Position numbers and translations under genes: made by a program. 64,000 nt of DNA, taken from an uncultured Gemmatimonadales bacterium. Its GTDB lineage: Bacteria > Actinomycetota > Acidimicrobiia > Spongiisociales > UBA5794. The DNA lies in contig CAXMRC010000135.1 in NCBI GenBank assembly GCA_964195945.1, forward strand, positions 16,518 to 80,517. Reading direction: 5' to 3'. The notes beneath the pieces were generated by a model, which saw only the letters and a list, made by a program, of their open reading frames with translations, was not told the DNA's origin and did no database searches. The first letter of the stretch is position 1. Each line of letters begins with the position of its first letter. Below are positions 2,072 to 62,524 of this stretch, piece by piece.

Positions 2072-3237
2072 GAGCCCTGCACACGTCGGATTGGCACGTC
2101 GGGAAACGGATCGGCCGTTACGACCGTGCGGAGGAGTACCGCGCTGTCATCAACGAAGTTGCGAACATCGCCGATGCCGAAGAGGTTGACATCGTCCTCC
2201 ACTCGGGGGATCTGTTTGACCGCCCGGTGCCGCCGATCGAAGCCATGGACATTGCTTTCTCAGGGCTGCTTCGGCTGACCGATTCAGGTAGGCGCCCCGT
2301 TGTCGTTATCGCGGGCAATCACGATTCTGGCGGATTCTTTGAGGCTTTGGCCCCGTTCCTGCGGAACCAAAATGTCCATCTCGTGGGTGAAATCAAGCGG
2401 CCAGACGATGGCGGAGTCCTCGACATTGCAACACCTGCGGGTCGCGCCGTGGTGAGCTGCTTCCCGTTTCTCCGTGAGGGGCGCGCTTTCCATGTTTGGG
2501 ATGCAGTCGAGGAGCACTACAAGCAATACGCTGACCGGTTGCGAGCCATCGCGGAGGCATACTCGACATATGCAGGGGAGCTTGCCGGCAACGATGCGGT
2601 GCAGTTCTTGGTCGCTCACTTCTTGGTCGGAGGTGCCAAGGTCCATGGGCATGGCGCTCCGCGCGGCGAACGTGCCCTCCATATGGGAGAGGCCTATGCC
2701 GCAACCAGCGAAGCGATTCCACCCGGCCCACAGTATGTCGCTCTTGGCCATATCCACGCTCCGCAGCCTGTCCCTGGAGCCAAAGTGCCTGCCGAATACG
2801 CCGGGTCACTCTTGGAGCTTGACTTCGGAGAGGCCGGCGAGAAGAAACGGGTCGTGGTCGTTGATGTCGAGCCGGGTAGTCCTGCTTCGATTCGGTCGAT
2901 TCCGCTGGCCGGCGGGAGGCGTTTGGTGAGGGCCAAAGGAGATTGGCAGCAACTGTTGGTTCGCGACGACGTTCGCGACAGCTACCTGGACCTAACGGTT
3001 GACACAGCAGGGCCCGATCCAGGTCTTGTTGATCGGGCTCGCGACGAATTCGACTTCTTGGTTCATGTGCGAGCCGAGTATCCAAGGGCAGAGACCGATA
3101 CTGCAGCCCGATCCGGAAAGACACTAGATGAACTGTACGGGATCTACTACCAGGAGTTAGAGGGTGTGCCGGCACCGCCTGAGTTGCTGGCGGCGTTCCG
3201 TGAGGTGATGGAGGAGGCTGGATATGCGTCCCCTTGA
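2068..3237 (+). CDS. sbcD: DNA repair exonuclease SbcD (Mre11 family metallophosphoesterase)
   Basis: Calcineurin-like phosphoesterase motifs are present: DWHVG, HSGDLFD, IAGNHD and a GHIH-type motif. The GTG start overlaps the upstream stop, and the gene ends with an ATGA overlap into sbcC. Confidence 0.85.
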   Translation: MRALHTSDWHVGKRIGRYDRAEEYRAVINEVANIADAEEVDIVLHSGDLFDRPVPPIEAMDIAFSGLLRLTDSGRRPVVVIAGNHDSGGFFEALAPFLRNQNVHLVGEIKRPDDGGVLDIATPAGRAVVSCFPFLREGRAFHVWDAVEEHYKQYADRLRAIAEAYSTYAGELAGNDAVQFLVAHFLVGGAKVHGHGAPRGERALHMGEAYAATSEAIPPGPQYVALGHIHAPQPVPGAKVPAEYAGSLLELDFGEAGEKKRVVVVDVEPGSPASIRSIPLAGGRRLVRAKGDWQQLLVRDDVRDSYLDLTVDTAGPDPGLVDRARDEFDFLVHVRAEYPRAETDTAARSGKTLDELYGIYYQELEGVPAPPELLAAFREVMEEAGYASP

Positions 3238-5728
3238 GCTAAAGCTGCGTAACTTTCGGTCCTACGCGGGCGAGCACTCGTTTAGTTTTCGGGATCGGAC
3301 CCTGGTGGGCATTGTCGGTCCCATTGGCAGCGGCAAATCGTCAATACTGGACGGGATCGCGTTTGCGTTGTATGGAAGAACTCCGACTATTGGATCGGCC
3401 ACAAAGACCCTGATCAATCAACGGGCCGCAGACATGAGTGTCGTGCTGCGTTTTGTCGTTGAAGACGAGATCTGGGAGGCCGCTCGCTCGGTCCGCGTCA
3501 AGGGGCAGAGCAAGCACGCCCTGTACCGGTACGAAGAAGATTCACCTGATGCCGAACCCATCGAAAAGCTGACAATGGAGGGCGAAGTCAGTGAACGAAT
3601 TGTTGAGCTGCTCGGGCTCGACTTTTCTGCATTCGAAAGGTCGGTCTTGCTGGCGCAAGGGCGGTTCGCCGAGTTCTTGCGGGCACGGCCGTCCGATCGC
3701 GACAAGGTGCTCAAAGGTGTATTCGGTCACGATCGGGTTGACCGGATGAAGAGCATCGCTAAAGAGCGCAAGGATGGCGCGACGCACGCCCTCGACAAGC
3801 TGGTGATTCGACTTGAGAAGGTTGACGAAGTCAAGCAACGTGTCACGGAGAGCCAACAACAACTCCACCAGACTCAGATCCGCATCAAGCAGCTCGACAA
3901 GGCAGCACCAGACCTGGCCCGGTTCGAAGAAGCACAGCAGACCGCTGCCGAGACCGTTCGCAAAGCACAAGAGCGTCTCCAGGCACTCGAGGAGCATGCC
4001 AGCAAGCTCCCGGATCAGAAGGTCACCCGGCGTTCGCTCGCCGACGCCGCTGCCGCGGAGCAGCGAAGGATCGATCTCGGTAAGGCTTTGGACGAGTCAC
4101 AGAACGTTGTGCAGACTGCGGAAAAGGAGCTCAGGGAGGCCAATGACGCTGAGGAGCCCGAGACGATTGCCGGTGCGGTGCGTCTGTTGGCAGCGGCGGA
4201 CCCGCAACTCAAGGCAGTAGTCGATGCTGACCGTCGTATTGCTATGGAGGCGGAGCGTCTTGCTGCCGCCCAGGGAGCAGTCGCCACAGTGGCAAGCCGA
4301 CTGGGCGAAGCGGAACAGGTCAAGGACAAATCCTTGGGACGCGCCGTAGAAGCGGCGATGATCCTCGATGAAGCGGAACGAGCGCTAGAGAGCGCCAGGC
4401 ATGCCGACATGGCCGCGACCCTACGCGCCGAACTCGTCGTCGGTGTTGAGTGTCCGGTGTGCCAACAGCCGATCGTTGACCTCCCGCACGCAGCTGGAGA
4501 AACTCATCTCACAGAACTCGATCGGGTGCTCGAGAGTGCCCGGCGTACGAAGAAAGAAGTTGACGACTCCCGCACCGAGGCGCTGACCACTCTGGAGCGC
4601 ACCAAGGAGCAACTCGAAGCAGCCAAGGAGAGCGTCGCAGCTGCCGAGAATCAGCTGGCGGGGTTACGCGAAGATTCGATCCGAGCTCGCGGTGATCTCG
4701 AAGAGACGACTCTGGTGCTGGAGAAAATCCTTGGCACCGGCGACCCGGAGGAGCATCTGGAAAGCCGTCGCAAAGCCTACGAGTCGCTTGTCATCGATCG
4801 GGACGAGGCGCAGCGCAGAACTGATCAGGTTCGTGGCGAGCATGATCAGTCGATTCGAGATGAACAGTACGCAAGGAAGGCGCTTCAGGACCTTGGTTTG
4901 AGATTGGCTGAGTTGGCGACGCGACTCGACTTCCCGCTCGAAATTGGAGAGGATCCAGATGCGTTGGGCTCTGCGTTCGATGAACTCAGAGATCGCTGGC
5001 AACAAGCCACCACAGAGCTGGGAAGTGAGCGCGCCACGGCAGAAGCAGCGCAAATCGAAACTGAATCTGCTCGCCGCAAGCTGCTGGCCGGACTTGCAAT
5101 AGAAGACGGTTTTGAAGTGGATCGTGCGGTGCTGGCTGACCGATCCCGCAGGTTGGGTGAGGAGATAGCCACGGGTGGCGAGGAGCTGCAGAAGGCCCGC
5201 GAACTGTTCGAGGAGCGAGGCAAGCTCGAGGACGCGATCGAGTTGTACGGTCGGATCAACACCGACCTTACCGATTCTCGCTTCGTTCGATTCCTGCTTG
5301 ACGATGAGCGGGCGAGGCTCGCGGAGCTGGGTAGCGAACATTTTCAGCAGCTCTCCGCCGGTAGGTATCGTTTTGCGGACGACAAGTTTGCGATTGTTGA
5401 CCTGACGGCAGCTGACGTGGTCCGTCGTGCCGATAGCCTCTCCGGCGGCGAAACGTTTCTTGCATCGCTCGGTCTTGCGCTCGCCCTCGCCGAGATGGTT
5501 GCCGGAACCGGCGGCAGACTTGACGCGTTCTTCTTGGACGAGGGATTCGGCACTCTTGATCCGGAACACCTCGATCTGGCGATGGAGGGCATTGAACAGC
5601 TGGTAGCCGATCAGTCGAACCGGCTTGTGGTAGTTGTAAGCCATGTTCCGGAGATGAGGATGCGTCTCGAAGATCTGATCGAATTGGAGCGCAACCCGCT
5701 GACCGGCGACACAAAGGTGATTGCGTAG
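3224..5728 (+). CDS. sbcC: DNA repair ATPase SbcC (Rad50 family, SMC-like)
   Basis: An N-terminal Walker A GPIGSGKSSILD is followed by a long coiled coil. A CPVCQQ zinc hook sits mid-protein. The C-terminus carries an ABC signature LSGGETF and a Walker B FFLDEGFGTLD. Confidence 0.85.
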   Translation: MRPLELKLRNFRSYAGEHSFSFRDRTLVGIVGPIGSGKSSILDGIAFALYGRTPTIGSATKTLINQRAADMSVVLRFVVEDEIWEAARSVRVKGQSKHALYRYEEDSPDAEPIEKLTMEGEVSERIVELLGLDFSAFERSVLLAQGRFAEFLRARPSDRDKVLKGVFGHDRVDRMKSIAKERKDGATHALDKLVIRLEKVDEVKQRVTESQQQLHQTQIRIKQLDKAAPDLARFEEAQQTAAETVRKAQERLQALEEHASKLPDQKVTRRSLADAAAAEQRRIDLGKALDESQNVVQTAEKELREANDAEEPETIAGAVRLLAAADPQLKAVVDADRRIAMEAERLAAAQGAVATVASRLGEAEQVKDKSLGRAVEAAMILDEAERALESARHADMAATLRAELVVGVECPVCQQPIVDLPHAAGETHLTELDRVLESARRTKKEVDDSRTEALTTLERTKEQLEAAKESVAAAENQLAGLREDSIRARGDLEETTLVLEKILGTGDPEEHLESRRKAYESLVIDRDEAQRRTDQVRGEHDQSIRDEQYARKALQDLGLRLAELATRLDFPLEIGEDPDALGSAFDELRDRWQQATTELGSERATAEAAQIETESARRKLLAGLAIEDGFEVDRAVLADRSRRLGEEIATGGEELQKARELFEERGKLEDAIELYGRINTDLTDSRFVRFLLDDERARLAELGSEHFQQLSAGRYRFADDKFAIVDLTAADVVRRADSLSGGETFLASLGLALALAEMVAGTGGRLDAFFLDEGFGTLDPEHLDLAMEGIEQLVADQSNRLVVVVSHVPEMRMRLEDLIELERNPLTGDTKVIA

Positions 5729-20100: not shown

Positions 20101-20236
20101 GACCACCCGTAACAAGATGAGCCAGGCGGTGGACGATGGTTGTGGTTTTGCCGGTCCCCGCTCCGGCGATGACGCGAAGGGGGAGGAGAGGATATTCGAT
20201 GATTGCTCTCTGCTCAGGTGTTGGAACGAAGTTCAT
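17183..20236 (-). CDS. adnB: AdnB-like UvrD-family helicase with a C-terminal RecB-type nuclease and Fe-S cysteines
   Basis: Walker A is [10 protein letters not shown], and the UvrD motifs [14 protein letters not shown] and HRAKGLEW follow. The C-terminus has a PD-(D/E)XK region plus [10 protein letters not shown]. The ATG at 20236 overlaps the upstream stop (ATGA). Confidence 0.75.
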
Positions 20237-23200
20237 ACGAACTCTGGACCTCCATCGGCCCACGCGGGGCATAAGGAACGTAGACCGCATCGATCACAGT
20301 GCGGACCGGGATTTGGTGACCAGTCCTCGTTTTGGATTCCAATGGCGATCGCGGTGAGGCGTGCTTCGACCTCGTCAAGTCCTTCCATCTTGAACTTGCG
20401 GACTGCGACCTTCTTGTTCGACGCCATCGGGTACCACAGTTCGGCCCCGACGACCGCGCCCAGCGCACCGATTTCCTCGTCACGCTGTGCGGCGAGTGCG
20501 TAGAACCCCAGCTGCAGCGACTCGCTGGCCTCGGCAACGGTGACCGGGCTTCTGCTTGTCTTGTAGTCGACCACGGTTACACCGGCGGGGGACACATCGA
20601 TCCTGTCGGCTCGTCCTGTCCACCTGACACCGGCTATCACCGTGTCGAGCCTTTGCTCCAAAACCGCGGCAGTTCGCTGCGGGGCCGGCCAGTTCTGGTA
20701 GAGCTTGGCCAAGCCAGCGTGAGCGCGCTGCACCCACGAGTTCGAGAAGGGGGGACCCTCAAAGTCGTATGGATCGAACCTGTCGTTTAGCTCTTGGAGC
20801 GCCTCCTCCAGAGTGCTGTGAGGCCGGCCGTCGGCGACGGCACGTTTTTCGGCTGCTTCCAGCACGTCGTGGATCAGCGTCCCAAACGTTGCGTGGATGG
20901 AGCTGTCCGATCCCACCTTGAGACGCCGTTCAAGTGCATAGCGACGGGGGCAGATTTCGTAGCCCTGCGCTTGCGAGGGAGACAGAACCGGATCGGCACC
21001 GACGAGGAGGTCGTTCGGTCCGCGGGCGGGGACACCGCTGAAAAGCTGCGGTGAGCGTAGATCCCAGGTTGGGCCGTCGGCGAGGGTTGTCAGTGCTGCA
21101 AGACGTGAGGGCGATGGTGCTGCCACGTCTGTCAAACAGCGTCGTAGTGCAGATTCGGCTTCGCTGGGGGTGACCGGTAGACGAGAAGATTCCTGGGGTG
21201 TGGTGTCAGGGGAAACGCATATCTCGATGCGGCCGGCTGGTCGGCCCGGATCTTGGTTGATGGTGGCGGCGATCTTGGTGAAGAACCTGCTCGGTCTTCC
21301 CGGCCCGTCGTCGAGGCCCCGCTCGGTTGCCGTCCACACGACCCGGCGTCGCGCCCGCGTCATTGCCGTGTAGGCGAGACGGCTCTCTTCCTGAAGACGG
21401 AAGGCGCGGTACTCGGCGGTGTCAGTCGGCACGTGAGGGAGAAGGTGCCTGACTCCGAGGAGAGAGTCGCGAGACCGGAGATCTGGGAAGACACCATCGA
21501 CGGCATCGGCGATGAAGACGACATCGAGCTCAAGCCCTTTCGCTTGGTGCAGGGTCGTCAAGGTAAGGCGATCACCGTCGGGTCGGCGGTAGCTGAGCAG
21601 CGGCTGTGCTTCGAAGTCTTCGCTTTCAGCCAAACCGCGGTAGTCGAGCAGCGTCCCTTTTGGATTTCTTTCTTCCCATCGATTGAGCACCTGCGCTAAC
21701 GACCGCCATGCCGCCCGCTCTTCGGCCGCGGTCGGGTCATTGACCATCTCTTCGATTCCAGGCAGCTCGCTCCATACACGCCACAAACCTTGCACCGCAG
21801 GAACCTGATTGGCCCAGCTGGCGTCTGCGATGAGGTTGGCCAGCGGAGCCCAATCTGGGAGGGTGGCCCTGATCGCGGGGGCCCAGGCGCCGGTTGATCT
21901 TGCGGTTCTTTCCAGTGCTCGGTACGCCCCAATGGTCAACCCGACGCGGGATCCGAGCAACACCCTCCGCAAGGATTGATTTGCTGCGATTGGTCCGTCA
22001 CACGCGGTAGCAGCTACGGCGAGGTCGAGTAGAAAGCGAACCGCGGGCTGGTCGGTGAGCCTGCTGCCGGGTAGTTCGTGGGGCACATGACGTCTCTCCA
22101 GTGCCCGTGACATGTCAGCCAGGAAGCGACGTTTGCTGCGAACGAAGACTCCGATGTTGCTGTACGGGATTCTCTCCGTCAGGTGGAGGCGCTGTGCCTC
22201 GGATGCGATCCATTCTGCTTCTTCTACCTGTTGGTCAAACAGATACGCCTCGACAGCACCGCGACCTGCGGCAGGGACTACGGCTCCTGTCGCCCCTGGG
22301 AGGTCTCCGGTGGTTACGTGTACGGCCGCGTTGAGGATGGTCTCTGGCGTACGGAAGGAGGTCGTCAGCAGAATGCGTGTTGCCATCTCATCCGAGGCCC
22401 CAAAATCGCTCTCGAACGCAGCGACATTTTCGACGGTGGCGCCGCGGAAGCTGTATATCGACTGGTAGGGATCGGCGGCAGCTGCGATATGCCGTCCGCG
22501 ATGCTGTAGAGCTTGTAGCAGTCGAACCTGGGCTGTAGTGGTGTCCTGGTACTCATCAACCAGGACATAGCCAGGGGAGTCGACCGTTGCGAGATCGCCG
22601 GACTCCAGCAAAGTGACCGCGGTAGCGATCAGGGTTCCGTAGTCGATGCGGTCGGTCCCGCGTAGCTCGTTGGTGTACGTCTCGAGGAATTGAGGGAGGC
22701 CTTTCCAATCATCCCGCTGCATCGTGGCGAGGGAGGTCGGTGTGTGCATCTGCTCGGCGGCGCGCAGTATGAAGTCGGTCACTTCCTTTGCAAATGTCTG
22801 AGTGCCAAGAAGCTGCGAAAACGCCTGTGACCACGACCCGGGGTTCTCCGCGAGGAGAAGACGATGTACAAGTGCAACTTGTTCCGGACCAGTCAGGATC
22901 TGAGGGTTGACGGTCCAACCCGCCTGCTCGGCATGGTTCTCGACGAGCCGTGCGGCATATGAGTGAAAAGTTGCGACATCGAGTTCCCCGATGGTCGCGG
23001 GTATGCCGGCGCGGATTCGTTCTCGAACCTCTGCCACACCACGGCGGGAGAAGCCGAGGATCGTAATAGCCTCGGGGCGAACTTCCTTTGCGGTAAGCAA
23101 GTGGATAGCCCGACGCACCAGAAACTCGGTCTTGCCGGTTCCCGGCCCCCCGACAACTATCTGTGGTCCGTCAGTTAGGGCGACCGCGTCGGCCCATCCG

Positions 23201-23247
23201 TCCGGTTCGACAGCGATGATCGGCGCGTCTTGGGACCATTGGCTCAC
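20233..23247 (-). CDS. adnA: AdnA-like UvrD-family helicase-nuclease subunit
   Basis: The N-terminus has VVGGPGTGKTEFL, and DEYQDT, IYSFRGA and HQAKGLE follow. The C-terminal nuclease region ends in HCDRCGLRSLC. The start overlaps the stop of the upstream nuclease gene. Confidence 0.75.
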   Translation of the reverse strand: MSQWSQDAPIIAVEPDGWADAVALTDGPQIVVGGPGTGKTEFLVRRAIHLLTAKEVRPEAITILGFSRRGVAEVRERIRAGIPATIGELDVATFHSYAARLVENHAEQAGWTVNPQILTGPEQVALVHRLLLAENPGSWSQAFSQLLGTQTFAKEVTDFILRAAEQMHTPTSLATMQRDDWKGLPQFLETYTNELRGTDRIDYGTLIATAVTLLESGDLATVDSPGYVLVDEYQDTTTAQVRLLQALQHRGRHIAAAADPYQSIYSFRGATVENVAAFESDFGASDEMATRILLTTSFRTPETILNAAVHVTTGDLPGATGAVVPAAGRGAVEAYLFDQQVEEAEWIASEAQRLHLTERIPYSNIGVFVRSKRRFLADMSRALERRHVPHELPGSRLTDQPAVRFLLDLAVAATACDGPIAANQSLRRVLLGSRVGLTIGAYRALERTARSTGAWAPAIRATLPDWAPLANLIADASWANQVPAVQGLWRVWSELPGIEEMVNDPTAAEERAAWRSLAQVLNRWEERNPKGTLLDYRGLAESEDFEAQPLLSYRRPDGDRLTLTTLHQAKGLELDVVFIADAVDGVFPDLRSRDSLLGVRHLLPHVPTDTAEYRAFRLQEESRLAYTAMTRARRRVVWTATERGLDDGPGRPSRFFTKIAATINQDPGRPAGRIEICVSPDTTPQESSRLPVTPSEAESALRRCLTDVAAPSPSRLAALTTLADGPTWDLRSPQLFSGVPARGPNDLLVGADPVLSPSQAQGYEICPRRYALERRLKVGSDSSIHATFGTLIHDVLEAAEKRAVADGRPHSTLEEALQELNDRFDPYDFEGPPFSNSWVQRAHAGLAKLYQNWPAPQRTAAVLEQRLDTVIAGVRWTGRADRIDVSPAGVTVVDYKTSRSPVTVAEASESLQLGFYALAAQRDEEIGALGAVVGAELWYPMASNKKVAVRKFKMEGLDEVEARLTAIAIGIQNEDWSPNPGPHCDRCGLRSLCPAWADGGPEFV

Positions 23248-24086
23248 GACGCGGCGACTGCGGCGTTCGCCTCATCGGCAAATGCAGGGCAGCGATCTTG
23301 GAACTGGCACCAACCACACAGCTTGCCTGGTCGGGGAGGGAAATCGTTTTTGACGATTGCCCGATTGATCGCAGACCACAATGCCTCTAACTTTCGCTGT
23401 GTTGCGTCCAGTTGGAGGTCGTTCACCGGTATCTCGTAGACGGTTGGCCCGTTGAGGTACATCAGCTTCAGGCGGACTGGAGTTCGTCCGATCCGCTTCC
23501 TGATCAATAACGCATAGATTTTTAGGGCAAAGAACGCCGGGATTGCATACTGCTCGGGAGGAGCTTTACCGGTCTTGTAATCAGTGATCACAACACCGTC
23601 CGGTTCCTCTTCCATACGGTCCAGGATCCCTCGAATCGTCATATCTCCGAGATCCTCGGTCATGTCCAGCTCGCGGTCGAGTGGCTCGAGTTGGGTCGGA
23701 TCCTCTACCAAGAAATAATTGGCGAGAACACCGAGACTTTCGATGCCCCAGGCCCGCTCATCTTCAGTGTTGTCAAAGAGGTCGGGGAACTCTTCGTCGC
23801 GGAGCTCCACCCACGCCTTGCGGAACAACCCGTAAAGGGTTTCGGGTGTTCGTTCTTTGGCGGCTAGGTCAAATAGCCATTGCAGTGCTAGATGAGCTGT
23901 TGTCCCGCGTGCCTGATAGACCGTTGGCGGAACTTCGATCTTGTCGATCGCCTTGAATTTGAAAAGCTGTGGGCAGACTTTGAAGTCGCCGGCGCGGCTT
24001 GGCGATAGCGTCTCCAAGGAGGTCGGCGGAGACATCTCCGGCTTCGGTCGAGGTGTCTTCTGCGGGGTTTTGTCAGGAGTTGTCAT
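23244..24086 (-). CDS. Cas4-like / RecB-family PD-(D/E)XK nuclease with a 4-Cys Fe-S cluster
   Basis: An N-terminal Cys (FKVCPQLF) pairs with a C-terminal CGWCQFQDRC, giving the C..CxxCx5C pattern. A DYK(TG) motif is present. GGAGA sits 5 nt before the ATG at 24086. The ORF track extends to 24344. Confidence 0.65.
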   Translation of the reverse strand: MTTPDKTPQKTPRPKPEMSPPTSLETLSPSRAGDFKVCPQLFKFKAIDKIEVPPTVYQARGTTAHLALQWLFDLAAKERTPETLYGLFRKAWVELRDEEFPDLFDNTEDERAWGIESLGVLANYFLVEDPTQLEPLDRELDMTEDLGDMTIRGILDRMEEEPDGVVITDYKTGKAPPEQYAIPAFFALKIYALLIRKRIGRTPVRLKLMYLNGPTVYEIPVNDLQLDATQRKLEALWSAINRAIVKNDFPPRPGKLCGWCQFQDRCPAFADEANAAVAAS

Positions 24087-24239
24087 CGTTTCTCCGACTA
24101 TACGCCGGCCCACCGACATAAACCACATCGATGTAGTTATCCACAGCCGGACGCGTCGATGGAGCAGCGGCAACAGCCGATGGTGATGCATCGCGAAACA
24201 ATTTCGTAGCACGCGAAAACTATAATGCGATCTGGTTTG

Positions 24240-24975
24240 ACTGCCCGCTGCGGTCGGCTTTACGTTATGGGTCCTTGAGGGCTCCACCCATGGAGGAGCG
24301 GAATTCGGAAGGACGGGACCAGGGAAACCGGACCCGACCGGCACCGGATTCTATGACCAGGGCGCTTGCGTCCACGGTCACCCGGAATGGATACATTCCG
24401 TCTCGGCGGCGCTTCGGCAAAGCCGGGAAACCCGCCGCAGGGACTTCGGTCTCAGTGGCACGTCGGACAGGCTTCGGCCTCAAAGACAGCCTGCGGGACT
24501 TCGGTCCGGCAGATGCTGCGGCTTCGGCCACAGCAAAACTGGGTGAGCTTCGGCTCGACCAGCGTTCTCCGAGTGAGGCGCATCGCCCACCGGGTGCGGG
24601 CTTCGGCCCAAGCCAGGTAGACGGTTGCCGCACCCGCAGGACCGATAAGACTTCTGGTCTTATCAACACACCGGTGCGATCGGTGGTCACGAGGGTTTCC
24701 TCGATTGAGAGCTTCGGCTCTGAACTGAGAGTCGTCAGGCTTAGGTCTGGTGGCAAGCCAGCGGGATCAAAAGGTCACACGGGTTGCCCCGAGCGAGGGC
24801 TTCGGCACTCGCAAGGAGCGGCACGGCTGGCTCGTGGCAGGACTTCGGTCCTGAACCGAGCGAGACGAGCAGCGACTGGAAGGGCCCGACCCCTCGGGGT
24901 AGGTGCCCGACCGAAAGCAAAGAATCCCCGAGAGGGTGGCGGTTTCGGCCAAAACTCCCTCGGGGTTTTCTTTGT
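24240..24975 (+). ncRNA. Candidate large structured RNA: an array of ~11 cUUCGg tetraloop hairpins ending in a terminator-like hairpin plus U-tract
   Basis: No convincing ORF covers the region. Perfect small palindromes recur at 24411, 24442, 24470, 24495, 24520, 24545, 24598, 24708, 24797 and 24840. Each carries a UUCG loop on the plus strand only. Nested junctions occur, for example CGGCGG..GCUUCGGC..CGGGAAACCCG..CCGCCG. The last hairpin (24918-24962) is followed by uuuucuuuguu. Confidence 0.35.
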
Positions 24976-24981
24976 TCGTGT

Positions 24982-25590
24982 TCAGCCGCAACCAGTGGCG
25001 AGCTCGATAAGGGTTACGGTGTCGGATTCCTCACGCCCACTGAGCAGCCCACGAATCTCAGTCCCGGCAATGCGGAACGACCACACATCCAGCTCCGTGT
25101 TGCCATCGACAGTCAAATCCGACCCGTAAGCGTCGGTGAGATCGCTGACGGTGCTTCCCAACCCCACACCAGCCGCGGTTGTCAATCTGAGGCCGCGGGG
25201 GTCAAATCCGCCCACGTTTTCGGAGTAGTCGTAGCCGTAGGAATAGGAGTAGAACCAGCCCCCAAGACGGTTCGCACCATCTCTGATGAAAATCGTCAAC
25301 AGGCTTCCCCACCCAATCGCCCGCATTTCGGAGCCGGGGCATGATCCGTAGATATTTGGCTCCGAGACAATCCAGTCGGAATCGTGATCGGGCTCACCGA
25401 AGAGGGCCGAGATCTCGGCGATCACGGTCTCCGGGGGCACCCCAAGCAGCACATCGCCGAGTCCATCATCCTCCAATACCAACTCCGCCAGCGGAGCGGT
25501 GTCGGACCCTTCCGGGCCGGGCTCGGTCACGGCGCACCCGGACGCCAGCAAGACCACGAACGCCAGGACAAGATGAGAGGTTGATCGCAT
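24982..25590 (-). CDS. Lipoprotein of unknown function
   Basis: Signal peptide plus lipobox MRSTSHLVLAFVVLLASGCAV. The ORF extends to 25839, and I take the signal-peptide Met at 25590 as the start. Confidence 0.5.
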   Translation of the reverse strand: MRSTSHLVLAFVVLLASGCAVTEPGPEGSDTAPLAELVLEDDGLGDVLLGVPPETVIAEISALFGEPDHDSDWIVSEPNIYGSCPGSEMRAIGWGSLLTIFIRDGANRLGGWFYSYSYGYDYSENVGGFDPRGLRLTTAAGVGLGSTVSDLTDAYGSDLTVDGNTELDVWSFRIAGTEIRGLLSGREESDTVTLIELATGCG

Positions 25591-25620
25591 AGGGAACCAA
25601 ACCCTAGAGCCAAACACCGC

Positions 25621-27414
25621 ATGGTCCAACGCGATAAGCTCCGTGCGGCTGGAGGAGAGCCGATGGATGACGATACAGGCAGCATGACTGACGGTTCGGG
25701 GCCCCGGGTCACGCGCGAGCTCGACCTCGTCGGTCGGCGGCGTGAGTTTCGGATCGCTGGTGTCACCGTTGCCGGTCGACGGCGACGCCCATCGGGAGAA
25801 GCTGCACCACTGCCACGGGAATTGCGGACAGCGGGTCATCTCTGGTTGCTATCCGGGCTTCTCATGGTCGCTGTCTGGATATCTCTCTTTTTGGTTCCGG
25901 CTTCAACAGACTGGTGGAGCGTCCAGGATCACAAAGCCTTGGCCTGGTTTGTCGACCTACGTTCGGACAGCCTCACCTCCGTTGCCAAAGCCTTCAACGC
26001 ACTGACCTCTGACATGTTTATCCGGGTGCTGCGGGTCGGGACTCTGCTCTCGCTGGTGTTTATCAAGAGATGGCGTCATTTCTTTGCGGTGCTGTTGGCA
26101 ATTCTGATCGTGCAGGGCACAGGCGAGGCCCTCCAGGGCATGGTCGGACGTCCCCGTCCGCTGGTTCCGATCCTTGCCGACTGGCGCGGTGCCTCCCACC
26201 CATCGCTCCCGGTGGCAGCGTTGGCGGTCACCTTTGGCGTTATGGCCTATGCGCTTCTTCCCAGCAGTAGGTGGAGACGAGGGATACTTGTTGGCTCGGG
26301 GGCGCTCATGGTCGTGGTGGCGTTTGCCAGGGTATATCTCGGGGTTGACCACCCATCCGATGCTTGGGTATCGCTGCTGTTTGCTCCCGCGGTGGCGGTC
26401 GTGGTGTTTCGGCTGTTCGCCCCGGAGGCTGCATTCCCGGTGTCATGGAAGCGTGGCGTCACTGCTCACCTCGACGTGTCGGGGCGCCGCGGTGTTGCTA
26501 TCCGTAACGCGGTGCGAGATCAGCTGGGTATCGAACTGGTCTCCATCGAGCCATTCGGGCAGGAAGGATCCGGCGGCTCGACACCCCTACGACTCGAAAT
26601 GGCCCCTGACCGAGCTCACGGTGAGAACTATCTATTCGCAAAGCTCTACAGCCAGACCCACCTGAGGTCGGATCGTTGGTACAAGGTGGGGAGGACAATC
26701 CTCTATGGAGCGCTCGAAGATGAGCTGCGCTTCACCTCGGTGCGCCGCTTGGTCGAGTACGAGGACTATATCCAGCGGGTGATGCGGGACTGCGGCATCC
26801 CGGCCGCGGAGCCGTTCGGAATCGTCGAGATAACCCCTGACAGGGAATATCTGATGGTGAGTCAATTCCTTTTCGAATCAGAGGAGTTGACGGATGCCGA
26901 AGTCGATGTCGATCTTGTCGACGACGCCCTCGGTGTTATTCGCCAGATGTGGGATGCCGGACTGGCCCACCGCGACATCAAACCTGCGAACGTGATGGTT
27001 AGGAACAATCAGGTCGTGCTTATCGACGTTGCGTTCGGAACGGTTCGCCCCAGCCCATGGCGACAAGCTGTGGATCTAGCCAACATGATGGTGATCCTGG
27101 CGTTGCGAACCGACGCGGAGCTCGTATACCAGCGGGCGCTACTGCAGTTCGATTCGCATGACATCGCCGAGGCATTCGCCGCAACACGGAGCGTTACGTT
27201 GCCGTCACAATCGCGTAGCTCGCTCGCTCTGTTGAAGCGTGAGGAAGGGATCGACATCGTCAAGGAATTCCGTCGCTTGGCGCCGGCAGCAGAGCCGATT
27301 TCGATACAGCGGTGGAGCACCCGGCGTATTGGCCTGACCGTCGGTGCTGCCTTCCTCGCAGTCCTGTTGCTCAGCATCATCGTGTCCGAGATCTCCGGAG
27401 GGGGCATGTTGTGA
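25621..27414 (+). CDS. Membrane protein fusing a PAP2 lipid phosphatase to a Hanks-type Ser/Thr-kinase-like domain
   Basis: The PAP2 motifs are VGRPRP, SHPS and ARVYLGVDHPSD. The kinase-like part has a G-loop FGQEGSGGS, a beta3 Lys in LFAKLY, an alphaC Glu, a catalytic loop LAHRDIKPANVMV and IDVAFG about 19 residues on. A C-terminal TM helix closes the protein. Confidence 0.6.
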   Translation: MVQRDKLRAAGGEPMDDDTGSMTDGSGPRVTRELDLVGRRREFRIAGVTVAGRRRRPSGEAAPLPRELRTAGHLWLLSGLLMVAVWISLFLVPASTDWWSVQDHKALAWFVDLRSDSLTSVAKAFNALTSDMFIRVLRVGTLLSLVFIKRWRHFFAVLLAILIVQGTGEALQGMVGRPRPLVPILADWRGASHPSLPVAALAVTFGVMAYALLPSSRWRRGILVGSGALMVVVAFARVYLGVDHPSDAWVSLLFAPAVAVVVFRLFAPEAAFPVSWKRGVTAHLDVSGRRGVAIRNAVRDQLGIELVSIEPFGQEGSGGSTPLRLEMAPDRAHGENYLFAKLYSQTHLRSDRWYKVGRTILYGALEDELRFTSVRRLVEYEDYIQRVMRDCGIPAAEPFGIVEITPDREYLMVSQFLFESEELTDAEVDVDLVDDALGVIRQMWDAGLAHRDIKPANVMVRNNQVVLIDVAFGTVRPSPWRQAVDLANMMVILALRTDAELVYQRALLQFDSHDIAEAFAATRSVTLPSQSRSSLALLKREEGIDIVKEFRRLAPAAEPISIQRWSTRRIGLTVGAAFLAVLLLSIIVSEISGGGML

Positions 27415-28979: not shown

Positions 28980-30202
28980 GATTGTGCGGTCACATAGGCG
29001 TCACCGGCTAATGCGGTCCGCTCCGATTCTGACATTCGCCACGTTTGGTTCCGCTGCCACAGCACATAGGAAGCTGCGCCAAGCGGAATTGGTAGAACAT
29101 ACGTTATAGCGCGGAAGACGAGGATCGCAGCAACCACCTCGGTCTTGGTGACCACGTCTAGTCCGATCGTTAGCGCCGCAACGTAGCCCAACTCGACGAC
29201 TCCGACACCACCCGGTGTCACCGGGAGGGCAGAAATCAATCTGACAAATGCGAACGCGGCCAGCACCTGAATCCAAGAGAGCTCTTCCTGGCTTACGCCG
29301 GTATGACGCAGGGTGATCAGTAGCACGGCATAGAGGGACAGGTGGCTGAGCATGGTGGCCAACGTCAGTTGTAGCCAGCGGTGCTGCAGAAGCCCGATCG
29401 TATCGCTGCGGAATCCGGCAGCCCGCTCACCCCAACTGCTGACAGGGCCTTTGCGCAAGATGCGGAGCAACTTTGACACCAGTCGTTCCAAAGCAGTACC
29501 GACGGATCGAGCAAGCCGATCGCTACCGAGAATCATCCAGAGACCTGTTACTGCGCCGCCTAAGGCCGCAAGCCCTATTGCCGAGGCCGTGATCCAAGCA
29601 TTCGAGACTTCGCTTTCAATGGCAAGCAGGCCAAGTGCGAGGATCGGCATGCCCATCTTGACGAAGTTGTTCCAGATCCCGGTCACCACGGCAGAGCGGG
29701 TTATGGCCGGCACAGAGAAGCCCCAAGAAGTCAGCATTGCGAGCGTGACGCCGACACCGATCGCCCCACCGCCGGGAAGAGTATTGGAGACGGCTGTGGA
29801 CGACTGATTGACCACAGTGGCTTCTCGCAAGCGAAGCCCGGGAAGCGCAGCAACGAGGACGAACCAGTAGGTAGCGAGATTCCAGAGCGCAACAATGCCC
29901 AACGAGATCGACTCCAGCCAGGTAAGTGACCGGACTGTTCCCCACACCTCGGTGTAATCAGCGATCCGGGGCATCACGCCAGCAAAGATGGCGACGACGA
30001 CGACTATCGAGATGACGGACTGGACAATTCGTCGTGTCTTTGGGGGCGGAGTTGTCCCGGATTGGTCTATGGACTTGGCCGCTTTGTCGCTCACTGTTTG
30101 GACCTCGTTAGTCGCCGTACGCGACACTACACGTTGGCCTCGTCTGCCCGGGCTGCGAGCCATAAACGGGTCGCGAAACAAAACAAAAAGGCGCGAAATC
30201 AA
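28976..30202 (-). CDS. Flippase-like integral membrane protein (lysylphosphatidylglycerol-synthase TM-region / UPF0104-like)
   Basis: About 8 TM helices with a GGGA(I)G(V)G segment, recognised by architecture. Its stop overlaps the PAP2 gene's stop region (convergent). Confidence 0.5.
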   Translation of the reverse strand: MISRLFVLFRDPFMARSPGRRGQRVVSRTATNEVQTVSDKAAKSIDQSGTTPPPKTRRIVQSVISIVVVVAIFAGVMPRIADYTEVWGTVRSLTWLESISLGIVALWNLATYWFVLVAALPGLRLREATVVNQSSTAVSNTLPGGGAIGVGVTLAMLTSWGFSVPAITRSAVVTGIWNNFVKMGMPILALGLLAIESEVSNAWITASAIGLAALGGAVTGLWMILGSDRLARSVGTALERLVSKLLRILRKGPVSSWGERAAGFRSDTIGLLQHRWLQLTLATMLSHLSLYAVLLITLRHTGVSQEELSWIQVLAAFAFVRLISALPVTPGGVGVVELGYVAALTIGLDVVTKTEVVAAILVFRAITYVLPIPLGAASYVLWQRNQTWRMSESERTALAGDAYVTAQS

Positions 30203-30255
30203 GTAACCAGTTTTGCTTGACCAAAGTGATTAGTGCGTCCTATGTTGTTCTCAGT

Positions 30256-30530
30256 CGTTGAGGCGGGAAACCGCAGCAGCGGCGCCGGGGCCCCGCAAGG
30301 GGTCACGGAGATCCGGAAGGGACGTCGACCCGCAAGGGAAGGTGGCCACCCGTAAGGGAAGTCCGGGGACGAGCCCCAGTGGTTCGACCCCACGGGCCCA
30401 GAAAGATCGGCCGGTTGAGACCTCGGTTTCAGCAGGTATCTCAGTTGAGCCGAAAGGCACCGACTGAGAAGGAAAACCCCGAGAGGGTGGAAGCTTCGGC
30501 GGAAACTCCCTCGGGGTTTCTCCGCGTCTC
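30256..30530 (+). ncRNA. Candidate structured RNA rich in GNRA tetraloop hairpins, sharing its 3' hairpin module with the 24240-24975 element
   Basis: The plus-strand hairpins are CCCCgcaaGGGG, CCCgcaaGGG, CCCguaaGGG and GCCgaaaGGC (inside CTCAGT..ACTGAG). A T-loop-like GTGGttcgaccCCAC is also present. The 3' module 30469-30527 is ~85% identical to 24918-24972. Confidence 0.3.
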
Positions 30531-30653: not shown

Positions 30654-31286
30654 ATGGCATTTCCAGAGAACATCCTCACCGACGACGAGTCCATCATCCG
30701 ACAATTCCGACCCCACTGGAGGATGCTTGCCATCCCCGTGCTGTGGGTCATCGCCGCCATTGTGGCGATCGTTGTGGTTTTCCAAGTTATCGACGCCGAG
30801 GGTTGGGTAGCGATAGCCCTCGTCGCTCTGATCTTGCTTGCGTTGATCCCACTAGGTGTGAACCCGTTCATCAAGTGGTTCTTTACTTCCTATGTGCTGA
30901 CGAGCGAGCGTCTCATTACCCGTACCGGGATGATCGCTCGCAGCGGGATCGAACTCCCGCTGCAGAACATCAACAATGTGCTGTTCAACCAAAGCATCAT
31001 CGAACGGTTCCTCAAGTCAGGGGATTTACTGATCGAGTCGGCAGGGGAGAGCGGACAGAGCGAGTTCACGAACATTCCGAATCCCGAAGAGTTCCAATCC
31101 TTGCTGTATCGGACCCGTGAAGATCAGAGCCGCAACACCGCGGCTGAGGAGTCAGCGATCGCGGCCGAGATCACTCGGGACCCGACGGAACAACTCGAAA
31201 GAGCGGCGAAGCTTCGCCAAGAGGGTGTGCTTTCGGATACGGAGTTCGAGGATATGAAGCGCAAGATCCTCGGAGATGCCGAGTAG
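30654..31286 (+). CDS. bPH_2 (YdbS/YdbT-like bacterial PH domain) membrane protein with a C-terminal SHOCT domain
   Basis: A two-TM hairpin is followed by a PH-like region and a C-terminal LRQEGVLSDTEFEDMKRKIL. The ORF opens at 30570, and the likely start is the internal Met at 30654. Confidence 0.5.
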   Translation: MAFPENILTDDESIIRQFRPHWRMLAIPVLWVIAAIVAIVVVFQVIDAEGWVAIALVALILLALIPLGVNPFIKWFFTSYVLTSERLITRTGMIARSGIELPLQNINNVLFNQSIIERFLKSGDLLIESAGESGQSEFTNIPNPEEFQSLLYRTREDQSRNTAAEESAIAAEITRDPTEQLERAAKLRQEGVLSDTEFEDMKRKILGDAE

Positions 31287-57454: not shown

Positions 57455-58822
57455 TTTGCCTAACTCGGGCGAGGTGTATTGCTCCTGGTCGTACTGGTTC
57501 GCCCTGGGATTCTTGGAGACTCTCGAGTGTGGAAAGATGAGAGTTATGGCACGAGAGATTACGTCGGGAAAACCGACCACACGGCGGTATTCGAATGAGG
57601 AGAAGGATCGGGCGGTTCGTCTGGTTTTCCAGCTTCGTGAGGAGTTGGGGATGTCGCAGGGGACGGTGGTTCGGGTTGCTGACCAGTTGGGTTACGGCAC
57701 CGAGTCGGTGCGCCGGTGGGTAGCCCAAGCCGAGATTGATGCCGGGGGTGTTGCGGGTATCTCGACTGCGGAGCGGGCCAAGATATAAAAGCTTGAGCAG
57801 GAAAACCGGGAGCTACGATGAGCCAACGAAATCTTGAAGCGGGCTTCGGCTTTCTTTGCGGCGGAGCTCGACCGCCCACAGAAGTAATGGTGCAGTTCAT
57901 TGACGAGAATCGTGACGACTTTGGGGTCGAGCCTATCTGTGCGACGTTGCAGGTGGCCCCATCGACATATTACGAAAACAAGTCTCGGATACCATCGGCT
58001 CGTGCGATCCGCGATGCGGTGATGATGCCGATCCTGTTGGCCCTGTTTCAGGCGAACTACTCGGTCTATGGGGTCCGGAAACTGTGGAAGGCAGCGTTAC
58101 GTGACGGTCACACGATTGGCCGTGACCAGGTGGCTCGTCTGATGAAGGCTCTTGATATTGAGGGAGTTTCACGTCGTCGACGGGTTCGCACGACCCGCCC
58201 CGACGACAAAGCCGTCCGGCCCCAAGATCTTGTCGAGCGGGACTTCACTGCCGATCAGCCGAACCAGCTGTGGGTGACGGACCTAACGTTTGTTCCGACC
58301 TGGCAAGGTGTTGGGTATGTGTGTTTCATCATCGATGCGTTCTCCCGCCAGATCGTCGGGTGGCGGGTTGCTTCCAATATGAGAACCCAGATGGTCCTCG
58401 ACGCCTTAGAGATGGCCCGCTTTTCTAGAGGCACCCGCCTCGAAGGTCTTGTGGCTCATTCCGATGCCGGGTCGCAATACACATCGATCCGATACGGGGA
58501 ACGCCTCGACGAGATCGGAGCAATACCATCGATCGGATCGGTCGGTGATTCGTTCGATAATGCACTTGCGGAGTCGGTTAACAGTCTCTACAAAGCCGAG
58601 CTGATCTACGGACCAGATCAGGGACCGTGGCGCAGCATCGAGGACGTCGAACTGGCTACTTTGGGTTGGATCCACTGGTACAACACCAAGCGGATCCACA
58701 GCTATCTCAACGACGTTCCACCGGCCGAATTCGAGGACACCTACCATGCCCAACAACGGGCAAGACAGTTGATTGGAAACCAATAGAACGAGCCTCCAAC
58801 AAACCCAGTACGCACCATACGG
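57455..58822 (+). mobile_element. IS3-family insertion sequence (orfA 57537-57788, orfB 57818-58786)
   Basis: orfA is an HTH transposase N-terminus (..AVRLVFQLREELGMSQGTVVRVADQLGYG..). orfB carries an rve DDE integrase core (WVTDLTF..IDAFSR.., HSDAGSQYTS, DSFDNALAES). The imperfect terminal inverted repeats are GGTCGTACTGGTT and AACCCAGTACGCACC. The element lies between upp and ffh. Confidence 0.75.
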
Positions 58823-61598: not shown

Positions 61599-62524
61599 GT
61601 CTCCGGCGGTGAAACGGTCTCAGGGACGCTGGTGTCGATTGGCACCCACACTCCCTCGAGATCCCCGTTTCGGGGCGACTCAGATCCAACGAACAGTTGC
61701 AGGCTCCGATGCGGCGGATCAACGAATGTGATTGTGAATTCTCCCCACATTTCGGCCCAGTCAGAGGCAATCGTCGACTGCTCGACTAGCGCCGTTGTCT
61801 CGCGGTCGTCGTAGAGGCGAGCGACCACATACGCCTCGAAAGACCGGGTGTATCCCGAAACAACGATGGGGGTCTCCGCCGGTCCCGGTGCCGGGGCGAG
61901 CACGACCACCGTCCCTGCACGCACGGCTCCAATGACAGGAGCTGCCTCGGGGTCGGGTCGGAGATCGATCACAATCCGGCTCGGTGCATCGACCGCAAAG
62001 GCCCGAAGAGCAACCGCGGCACCGGGTGTCACATGAATGTCGATTGCCAGACTCCCGCTTTCTGTTCGCACGACATACACACGGTTGACGAGGTCGCCAT
62101 CAACGAGCGAGTCGGCGACTGCGGTCCTAGCGATCGCGGTTGGCAGGTTCACCCGAACTATGCCGAGGGTCTCGTTGTACTCCACCCCGACAGGCCCCAG
62201 AGCGCCTGCGGGGGCTCCGTCGACGGTGAGTAGATCCACTGCGACGCGTTCGCAGCCAGGATGACCCGCCCAGCGGATCCCCGAAATCTGCGTCGCATCG
62301 CCGCTGGCGCCACCGAACGCTGAAATGACGCCTGCGCTCGCAAAGGGCCGATCGCCGGCCAGACACGGTGAGTCGTCTTGGAGCGGTGGCTCGGCTGAGG
62401 CGGTGGTTATTGCCGCGGGCGTCTCCGGCGGGGTACTCGTGGTTGTCGTTGACGTCCCGATGTCCAGCGAAGTACATCCGACGGCGACGATGGCGAACAT
62501 GGCGATAAGTAGAACCCGGCGCAT
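61595..62524 (-). CDS. Lipoprotein with GerMN/Gmad2-like beta-sandwich domains
   Basis: Signal peptide plus lipobox MRRVLLIAMFAIVAVGCTS, then a Thr/Pro linker. The domain call is a tentative pattern match. The ORF extends to 62704. Confidence 0.45.
   Translation of the reverse strand: MRRVLLIAMFAIVAVGCTSLDIGTSTTTTSTPPETPAAITTASAEPPLQDDSPCLAGDRPFASAGVISAFGGASGDATQISGIRWAGHPGCERVAVDLLTVDGAPAGALGPVGVEYNETLGIVRVNLPTAIARTAVADSLVDGDLVNRVYVVRTESGSLAIDIHVTPGAAVALRAFAVDAPSRIVIDLRPDPEAAPVIGAVRAGTVVVLAPAPGPAETPIVVSGYTRSFEAYVVARLYDDRETTALVEQSTIASDWAEMWGEFTITFVDPPHRSLQLFVGSESPRNGDLEGVWVPIDTSVPETVSPPET

Follow-up and report, generated by a model that had tools for sequence, protein, structure and literature searches.

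The window analysed here is a 64-kb stretch of genome from an uncultured member of the Acidimicrobiia, and the analysis concerns an intergenic segment that the initial annotation had read as a candidate large structured RNA. The flanking genes are as described there, all on the minus strand: a nuclease-helicase operon on one side and a lipoprotein-like open reading frame, which has no Pfam match, on the other (Table 1). Both neighbours therefore lie on the strand opposite to the predicted RNA, which we call RNA-1, with the nuclease gene divergent from it and the downstream gene convergent; in view of this arrangement, a riboswitch or other cis-acting leader was rejected. RNA-1 had also been taken as antisense to both flanking genes. 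The opposite orientation stands, but with no overlap between RNA-1 and either coding sequence the term antisense does not apply.

A hidden protein gene was likewise rejected. Neither of the two long open reading frames of the region matches a Pfam family, and an exact protein look-up found no contig on record encoding the exact 285-aa frame. Compared with relatives, the translated plus-strand frame gave piecemeal matches with frame switching even in the closest genomes, and its identity was 30-40% where DNA identity is about 70%. Variable ungapped columns were spread evenly over the codon phases (90/124, 88/125 and 93/122), i.e., without codon periodicity. With relatives aligned, no reading frame is conserved, in agreement with the earlier statement that the segment holds no credible protein frame. 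An origin from a mobile element or phage was rejected as well: blastn against phage and plasmid collections gave no match for the RNA-1 region, and the 11 matches to its promoter pattern in viral contigs were all chance, none of them being accompanied by the terminator module or placed in the expected context.

Table 1. Genes and predicted RNA features at the RNA-1 and RNA-2 loci (positions in the window)
Feature	Position	Strand	Basis
UvrD-type helicase-nuclease gene	20233-23247	-	Pfam
PD-(D/E)XK nuclease gene	23244-24086	-	Pfam
Upstream box 1, CGCGAAA	24192-24198	+	Invariant in the 14-species alignment A1
Upstream box 2, CGCGAAA, extended CGCGAAAAc.aa.ca	24212-24218	+	Conserved in A1; fixed spacing
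Putative -35 element, TTGACT	24237-24242	+	TTGAC invariant in A1
Putative -10 element, TACGTT (TAnnTT)	24261-24266	+	18 nt after TTGACT; conserved in A1
RNA-1, predicted transcript of ~700 nt	24273-24975	+	Homologues, covariation, G-U/A-C strand test; ends predicted
Conserved 5' domain	24273-24399	+	55 invariant positions in alignment A2
Variable array, six cUUCGg-capped hairpins	24400-24563	+	Hairpin gain and loss between species
Conserved 3' core	24564-24919	+	Helices 12-29 with compensatory pairs; projection on the window
Sequence-conserved terminator module	24920-24975	+	Terminator-like prediction; covariation in helices 30-31; copy at 30477-30516 (RNA-2)
Lipoprotein-like open reading frame	ends 24982	-	No Pfam match
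RNA-2 gene, predicted RNA of ~275 nt	30172-30526	+	Dual-box promoter and terminator module as in RNA-1

Relatives of the locus were collected with the nuclease protein as query, which gave 40 loci from species-level genomes, with about 8 kb covered around each; all 40 are metagenome-assembled and belong to the Acidimicrobiia or Actinomycetota. By blastn, the intergenic region was found in syntenic position in 14 of the 40, and five of these 14 carry full-length RNA-1 homologues at 68-75% DNA identity. When metagenomes were added, RNA-1 homologues came to at least 20 loci of 661-864 nt, and the seven new metagenome loci, recovered regardless of gene context, all lie between nuclease and lipoprotein-like genes. 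The 14-way alignment of the locus from 14 Acidimicrobiia species (A1) divides into four zones: an upstream motif that does not vary, a 5' domain of high conservation, a middle stretch with hairpin turnover, and a conserved 3' core with the terminator. One hairpin kept by 13 relatives is missing from the RNA-1 of the window.

RNAalifold predicted 182 pairs on A1, 69 of them with compensatory change, and 95.8% of the 2424 cells of the consensus structure in this alignment are paired. The hairpins first described from the window alone are maintained in relatives: the predicted helices are kept in the 14 species, with 68 of 180 pairs compensatory. Column shuffles gave 35.1 ± 3.7 such pairs (none of 500 reached 68), while sliding the partners by 1-3 columns gave 17-24, a comparison in which the observed structure is favoured since it was derived from the same alignment. 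Despite this origin of the structure, the excess of compensatory pairs and of pair types is large. Within the helices, A1 contains 274 G-U cells compared to 29 A-C cells, which points to selection on a plus-strand RNA and not on DNA palindromes; this asymmetry and a conserved plus-strand promoter agree with the strand proposed initially. Folding energy by itself decides nothing, because shuffled sequence folds less well than either strand (z = -4.0 for the plus and -6.5 for the minus strand). The consensus structure holds about 31 helices, mostly local, and has no supported closing stem; a search for long-range helices or pseudoknots with covariation support in RNA-1 found none, as it was dominated by phylogenetic noise and its candidates (24322-24329 with 24694-24701, and 24273-24281 with 24957-24965) were invariant. 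Altogether, the locus is very probably a genuine gene for a structured plus-strand RNA, belonging to a new family from uncultured Acidimicrobiia.

In the modelled fold, RNA-1 is a succession of about 30 mostly local helices forming a 5' domain, a variable array, a 3' core and a terminator hairpin. The 5' domain comprises a UCCUU/GAGGA helix around GGGCUCCACCCAUG, a bulged helix with CGGAAGG, a GAAA-capped hairpin, GACCGGCACCG, a lineage-specific insert (24353-24383) and a GAUA-capped hairpin, with compensatory pairs present in helices 2-4. A covariance model of this domain (R1) scored 98-119 bits in 14 of 14 species and nowhere else, matching neither the unrelated RNAs that other lineages carry at this locus nor the sibling RNA-2 described below. 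R1 is thus limited to the subclade of the window, so that clusters are linked as homologues solely through their position, promoter, 5' end motif and terminator. Most hairpins of the array consist of an outer stem, a small internal loop, an inner stem and a UUCG loop, and those that can be aligned (helices 5-11) keep their pairing through compensatory change. In the 3' core, the invariant CACGAGGGUUUCCUCG and GGCAAGCCAGCG are surrounded by a multi-branch domain (24685-24767), and its hairpins include a long bulged one (24822-24869) and one formed by GGAAGGGCCCGACC...GGUGCCCGACC. Within RNA-1, conservation is lowest in the central UUCG hairpins and strong in the 5' domain and 3' core.

The terminal hairpin (24920-24972), followed by UUUUCUUUGUU, was scored as terminator-like, and its stem is conserved in 14 species, which bears out the intrinsic terminator proposed for this end. 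The module is laid out as AAGAAU, CCCCGAGAGGG, an apical UUCG hairpin, CUCCCUCGGGG and UUUUCUU, with a tail consensus of G-UUU-C-Y-C-G-C-G; its stem, supported in the 14 species, has conserved unpaired A/C and an invariant G-U. It is a GC-rich stem-loop directly before a U-tract and is thus a predicted Rho-independent terminator. Of the extent originally given to the RNA, 24240 to 24975, the end holds, whereas the start most likely lies near 24273, since the predicted promoter takes up 24192-24266; the transcript would begin 6-8 nt after the -10 element and end at the U-tract.

The TTGACT and TACGTT hexamers, 18 nt apart, would make a housekeeping-type promoter. A generic promoter scan missed it, presumably because TACGTT fits TATAAT at only 3 of 6 positions. 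Its geometry was assessed in 142 promoters of the cassettes described below, drawn from all fetched loci: the spacer between box 1 and box 2 is 13 nt in 122 of them, box 2 stands exactly 18 nt from TTGAC in 141, and TTGAC is present in 115, with a -10 element of the form TAnnTT. The full promoter pattern reads CGCGAAA-N13-CGCGAAA-N18-TTGAC-N18/19-TAnnTT. The dual CGCGAAA box occurs twice in the window compared to 0.01 expected, and it is present in 34 of the 40 fetched loci, often twice on the RNA strand. A possible third dual box, at 61834 (+), was rejected as chance. Literature searches on the CGCGAAA motif, on structured RNAs of Acidimicrobiia and on large UUCG-rich RNAs returned nothing relevant.

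CTTCGG, the DNA form of the capped loop, was counted 10 times on the plus strand and never on the minus strand within 24412-24848. Across the 64 kb of the window it occurs 68 times, counting both strands, from which about 0.2 would be expected per 437 nt on one strand, and no second cluster was found in the window. These ten copies and a uUUCGg in the terminal hairpin correspond to the roughly 11 cUUCGg hairpins, in plus-strand reading, that first drew attention to the segment. Projected onto the window, the consensus structure of RNA-1 has 20 hairpin loops, 11 of which are UUCG (ten closed by c-g and one, in the terminator, by u-g) and two GNRA (GAAA and GAUA); none of the 20 contains GGA. 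In each of the 14 aligned RNA-1 sequences UUCG far outnumbers any other tetraloop, with 3 to 13 UUCG loops per RNA. Repeat searches of the region found no tandem repeat at a score of 30 or above, and its direct repeats amount to nothing beyond a hairpin-level likeness of 12-15 nt at irregular spacing. A CRISPR array, which would show near-identical direct repeats of 24-48 nt alternating with unique spacers of similar length, was rejected on these grounds, as it had been from the outset. RNA-1 does contain one internal 37-nt duplication (24685-24721 and 24773-24809).

A sibling, RNA-2, lies 5 kb from RNA-1, upstream of a gene with bPH_2/SHOCT domains (Pfam). Covariation was seen in it as well, with 30 of 75 predicted pairs compensatory among 14 homologues. 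Scanning metagenomes with the terminator pattern yielded at least 120 loci, and the survey of such cassettes extended to roughly 160 related loci among the matches listed. Pairing promoters with terminators gave at least 127 cassettes of 91-856 nt, which fall into at least 35 sequence clusters; the RNA-1 of the window forms cluster 0, and nearly every other cluster among the matches listed sits at one of two positions. The RNA-1 position, divergent from the nuclease gene, carries bodies of about 140-830 nt in these other clusters (about 140-860 nt overall) that are unrelated between lineages, and the RNA-2 position is just upstream of the bPH gene. The two end elements go together: among the matches listed, a dual box lies no more than 1.1 kb upstream of 171 out of 190 terminator modules that could be decided, and a terminator module follows 184 out of 215 dual boxes that could be decided. 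Some lineages have three cassettes in tandem. Unrelated RNA-1 clusters share the 5' end motif YUCCCUCGA, and cUUCGg, cGCAAg, GGGAAAC and CGGAAGG are enriched words across the family.

As read from these sequences, the cassette marks two positionally conserved predicted RNA genes whose bodies, about 90-860 nt long, have diverged beyond recognition. The putative RNA bodies are fast evolving between lineages and strongly constrained within them, and they appear to grow by the addition of tetraloop-capped hairpins, as suggested by the variable zone of A1, by tandem duplications of 59-62 nt in one locus (L014) and by the 37-nt duplication in the window.

Known families were compared using Rfam 15 (4227 models; expected were 6S, Ms1, raiA, GOLLD, ROOL, OLE, HEARO, RNase P, tmRNA, SRP and riboswitches). 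The sole match at gathering thresholds in the whole window was ALIL (57848-57961). At E values up to 10, only three matches fell on 24000-25100, with 15-21 bits against thresholds of 41-70, and the RNA-2 region gave nothing credible. With no credible Rfam 15 match to RNA-1, the covariance models agree with the earlier failure to assign it to a known RNA family. The family is absent from Rfam 15, i.e., uncatalogued, and falls within the known kind of stand-alone regulatory or structured RNAs of bacteria.

The Gac/Rsm and Csr sponges (RsmX/Y/Z, CsrB/C) are multi-hairpin RNAs that stand alone and occur as several paralogues; their hairpin number and length vary between species, a strong terminator stands at the end, and a dedicated upstream activator site defines a regulon that is essentially these RNA genes only. 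RNA-1 and RNA-2 resemble them as paralogous loci with a shared upstream site, a variable number of hairpins and a terminator. An upstream site common to the paralogous RNA genes is found in the dual CGCGAAA boxes, which precede RNA-1, RNA-2 and the cassette RNAs of related loci at rigid spacing, and where we infer that an activator binds. By analogy, the design thus appears closest to the Gac/Rsm and Csr sponges, yet it fails on their defining GGA loops: unlike CsrB and RsmZ, RNA-1 has UUCG or GNRA loops instead. It also differs from them in having a direct repeat of CGCGAAA in place of the palindromic GacA box and a large conserved non-repetitive core, and CsrA is not known from Actinomycetota.

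The best explanation as a whole is that 24192-24975 (+) is a stand-alone gene for a structured noncoding RNA of about 700 nt, working as proposed here, and we consider this likely. The two CGCGAAA boxes would be the site for a dedicated activator whose targets are these RNA genes, as suggested by a direct repeat of fixed geometry upstream of a good housekeeping-type promoter. The conserved terminator stem may double as a protein handle, since the constraint on its sequence (unpaired A/C, invariant G-U) exceeds what termination itself needs. RNA-1, co-regulated with RNA-2, would serve as an abundant protein-binding scaffold or sponge, its capacity tuned by hairpin gain and loss, in keeping with a variable number of hairpins on a conserved frame. 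This last step, the scaffold or sponge mechanism, is offered tentatively. It is consistent with growth through hairpin insertion and tandem duplication, and with retention of the promoter, 5' end motif and terminator at a locus whose RNA bodies differ fully between lineages. However, no protein is needed to explain the enrichment of UUCG and GCAA loops, as no hairpin caps are more stable, and the conserved domains, invariant junction nucleotides and GAAA loop could instead reflect a compact tertiary fold with another job.

Among the alternatives, a trans-acting base-pairing RNA, in which conserved single-stranded stretches would pair with mRNAs and the hairpins merely stabilise the molecule, is unlikely. 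The short members of the cassette family, about 100 nt plus terminator, do look like small RNAs with a conserved unpaired segment such as GGGGGCCCGCUUUCCCGG, and YUCCCUCGA, the common 5' end of unrelated RNA-1 lineages, resembles an anti-Shine-Dalgarno sequence; in the RNA of the window, however, the UCCUU segment is paired inside helix 1, and 700 nt far exceeds what a seed requires.

A regulator that binds RNA polymerase in the manner of 6S or Ms1, with RNA-1, RNA-2 or both sequestering the enzyme in some growth state, seems improbable to us. The conserved neighbour of 6S is ygfA, whereas those of RNA-1 are the nuclease-helicase operon and the lipoprotein-like frame. Ms1 and 6S are abundant stand-alone RNAs in which structure and gene neighbourhood are conserved and sequence is not (PMC9130861, PMC4191392), and they are recognised by the former; RNA-1 and RNA-2 similarly keep position and promoter while their sequences diverge, and RNA-2, at about 275 nt, is of Ms1 size. 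Against this, RNA-1 is two to four times longer than these RNAs, RNA length at the locus varies about six-fold, and neither RNA has a credible Rfam match at E values up to 10. The HAD-IB hydrolase and oxidoreductase genes that form the Ms1 neighbourhood (PMC9130861) are absent from the RNA-1 locus, and the RNA-1 consensus, a chain of local hairpins with multi-branch domains, lacks the layout of a single rod that has an open-promoter-like bubble at its centre and is closed by a stem of the 5' and 3' ends. Identity of RNA-1 with Ms1 or 6S was rejected on synteny, structure and the Rfam result.

A compact "ornate" RNA whose intrinsic role is structural or catalytic, which may assemble with itself in the way of ROOL, GOLLD or OLE and has the UUCG hairpins as peripheral struts, appears no less doubtful. 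RNA-1 is of comparable size, about 700 nt, and shares with GOLLD, ROOL, OLE, HEARO and raiA the 500-800 nt class, a dense structure backed by covariation, many stable tetraloops and discovery by comparative genomics. Many unpaired nucleotides of its 5' and 3' domains are invariant, as is a GAAA tetraloop, two invariant 8-mers (GGGAAACC at 24322-24329 and GGUUUCCU at 24694-24701) are complementary, and the 5' end bears the near-palindrome CCUCGAGG, with CCUUAAGG in one species. Unlike those RNAs, RNA-1 matches none of their covariance models or any other in Rfam, its helices are mostly local with no long-range helix supported by covariation, and its body is conserved in one subclade only, though the locus is wider. 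In sister lineages the orthologous loci carry unrelated bodies down to about 140 nt, which would be unexpected for a tertiary machine. Finally, the reading that the region is REP/BIME-like, with extragenic palindromes arrayed at the DNA level, or is junk particular to this lineage between convergent and divergent genes, in either case with no RNA function, is effectively excluded, since the many short, clustered, GC-rich intergenic palindromes and the folding of the minus strand that speak for it are outweighed by a G-U to A-C asymmetry not expected of DNA palindromes, compensatory change that keeps pairs across species, a single-copy orthologous location framed by conserved promoter and terminator, and hairpins that, within 64 kb of genome, are neither copies of one unit nor clustered a second time.

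Returning to the scaffold or sponge, we regard it as possible, though speculative, that the cassette is a dedicated noncoding RNA system of the Acidimicrobiia, a small regulon of fast-evolving hairpin-array RNAs forming the output of a global regulatory pathway. The regulon would consist of RNA-1 next to the nuclease-helicase operon of DNA-damage type, RNA-2 next to the bPH gene and the tandem extras of some lineages. By analogy with Proteobacteria, an activator and an RNA-binding protein would take the roles of GacA and RsmA, and RNA-1, as the largest member, may also fold into a higher-order particle. The nuclease-helicase operon adjoining RNA-1 carries a PafBC-type DNA-damage promoter (RecA-NDp type), and the fixed position of RNA-1 beside it suggests a condition in which to seek expression of the RNA.

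To our knowledge, few bacterial structured RNAs above 500 nt are well supported, and each of those has so far opened a line of work. The rigid promoter motif would provide a handle for fishing out its transcription factor, the conserved terminator hairpin could serve to capture a binding protein, and RNA-2 together with the many natural length variants would amount to a ready-made deletion series. Acidimicrobiia are abundant in sediments, soils and sponges but have hardly any genetics, and as far as we know they lack the well-known Hfq and CsrA systems; the RNA family described here would offer a first view of RNA-based regulation in this class.

The window holds, besides RNA-1, the predicted structured RNA of ~700 nt, a sibling RNA gene called RNA-2, which shares with it the promoter and terminator elements listed in the table below. 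Compensatory changes were found in 30 of the 75 predicted pairs among RNA-2 homologues (n = 14), a comparison of RNA-2 with Rfam gave no match, and a bPH_2/SHOCT gene lies downstream (window 30654-31286).

Features of the window, with the basis of each assignment
Feature	Window position	Strand	Basis or context
RecA-independent DNA-damage promoter motif, exact match	24097-24118	-	TGTCGGTG-N8-TATAGT, matching the actinobacterial consensus
Invariant complementary stretches of RNA-1, unused by its nested consensus structure	24273-24281, 24322-24329, 24694-24701, 24957-24965	+	Sequence complementarity
285-aa ORF	24982-25839	-	Convergent with RNA-1
RNA-2, ~275 nt	30172-30526	+	Dual CGCGAAA-box promoter and terminator module, both as in RNA-1
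ALIL pseudoknot	57848-57961	+	Rfam match, 89 bits

In other lineages, entire cassettes of promoter, RNA and terminator were observed in tandem duplication (L160, 3900-5000, minus strand; L056, 900-1760, plus strand), with up to three in a row, including two near-identical RNAs of ~150 nt; because their -35 element is TTGCG, such cassettes are missed by the strict promoter pattern. At the related locus L014 (~3230-3560, minus strand), the RNA at the RNA-1 position includes a 59-62-nt UUCG hairpin pair that is present three times in tandem, with GGCAC as the separator.

The 3' core of RNA-1 contains an internal duplication of 37 nt (24685-24721 and 24773-24809, plus strand; 78% identical), in which each copy has GGUCAC at its start and a cUUCGg hairpin at its end. 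At 24869/24870, the RNA-1 of the window lacks a 9-pair hairpin with the consensus GGCGGAUGUCCUCACGGCCAUCUGC (columns 959-982 of the 14-species alignment A1), which is present in all 13 other species directly 3' of the invariant GACGAG. As judged by complementarity, GGGAAACC, comprising a GAAA loop and its flanks, could pair with GGUUUCCU, and the 5' end of RNA-1, CCUUGAGGG, could pair with CCCUCGGGG, the 3' arm of the terminator; covariation provides no test of either pairing since these stretches are invariant. The 5' motif CCUCGAGG is a palindrome, and its version in L002, from another genome, is CCUUAAGG.

The 285-aa ORF is probably over-extended, as a signal peptide starts at residue 84 and carries a lipobox (MRSTSHLVLAFVVLLASGC), making a lipoprotein of ~200 aa likely. 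The RNA-1 terminator hairpin has a T-rich run on the minus strand too, and it may also end transcription of this lipoprotein-like gene. ALIL is the frameshift signal of IS3-type transposases, and its match indicates an insertion sequence near the end of the window.

RecA-independent DNA-damage promoters of actinobacteria reportedly follow the consensus tTGTCRgtg-8nt-TAnnnT. The putative promoter ends 10 nt before the downstream ATG of the PD-(D/E)XK nuclease gene, and a similar motif was found at the equivalent position in ~14 of 40 related loci. Given this motif and the PafBC dependence of mycobacterial adnA (PMC8682763), the operon with which the RNA-1 gene is arranged head-to-head is probably induced by DNA damage.
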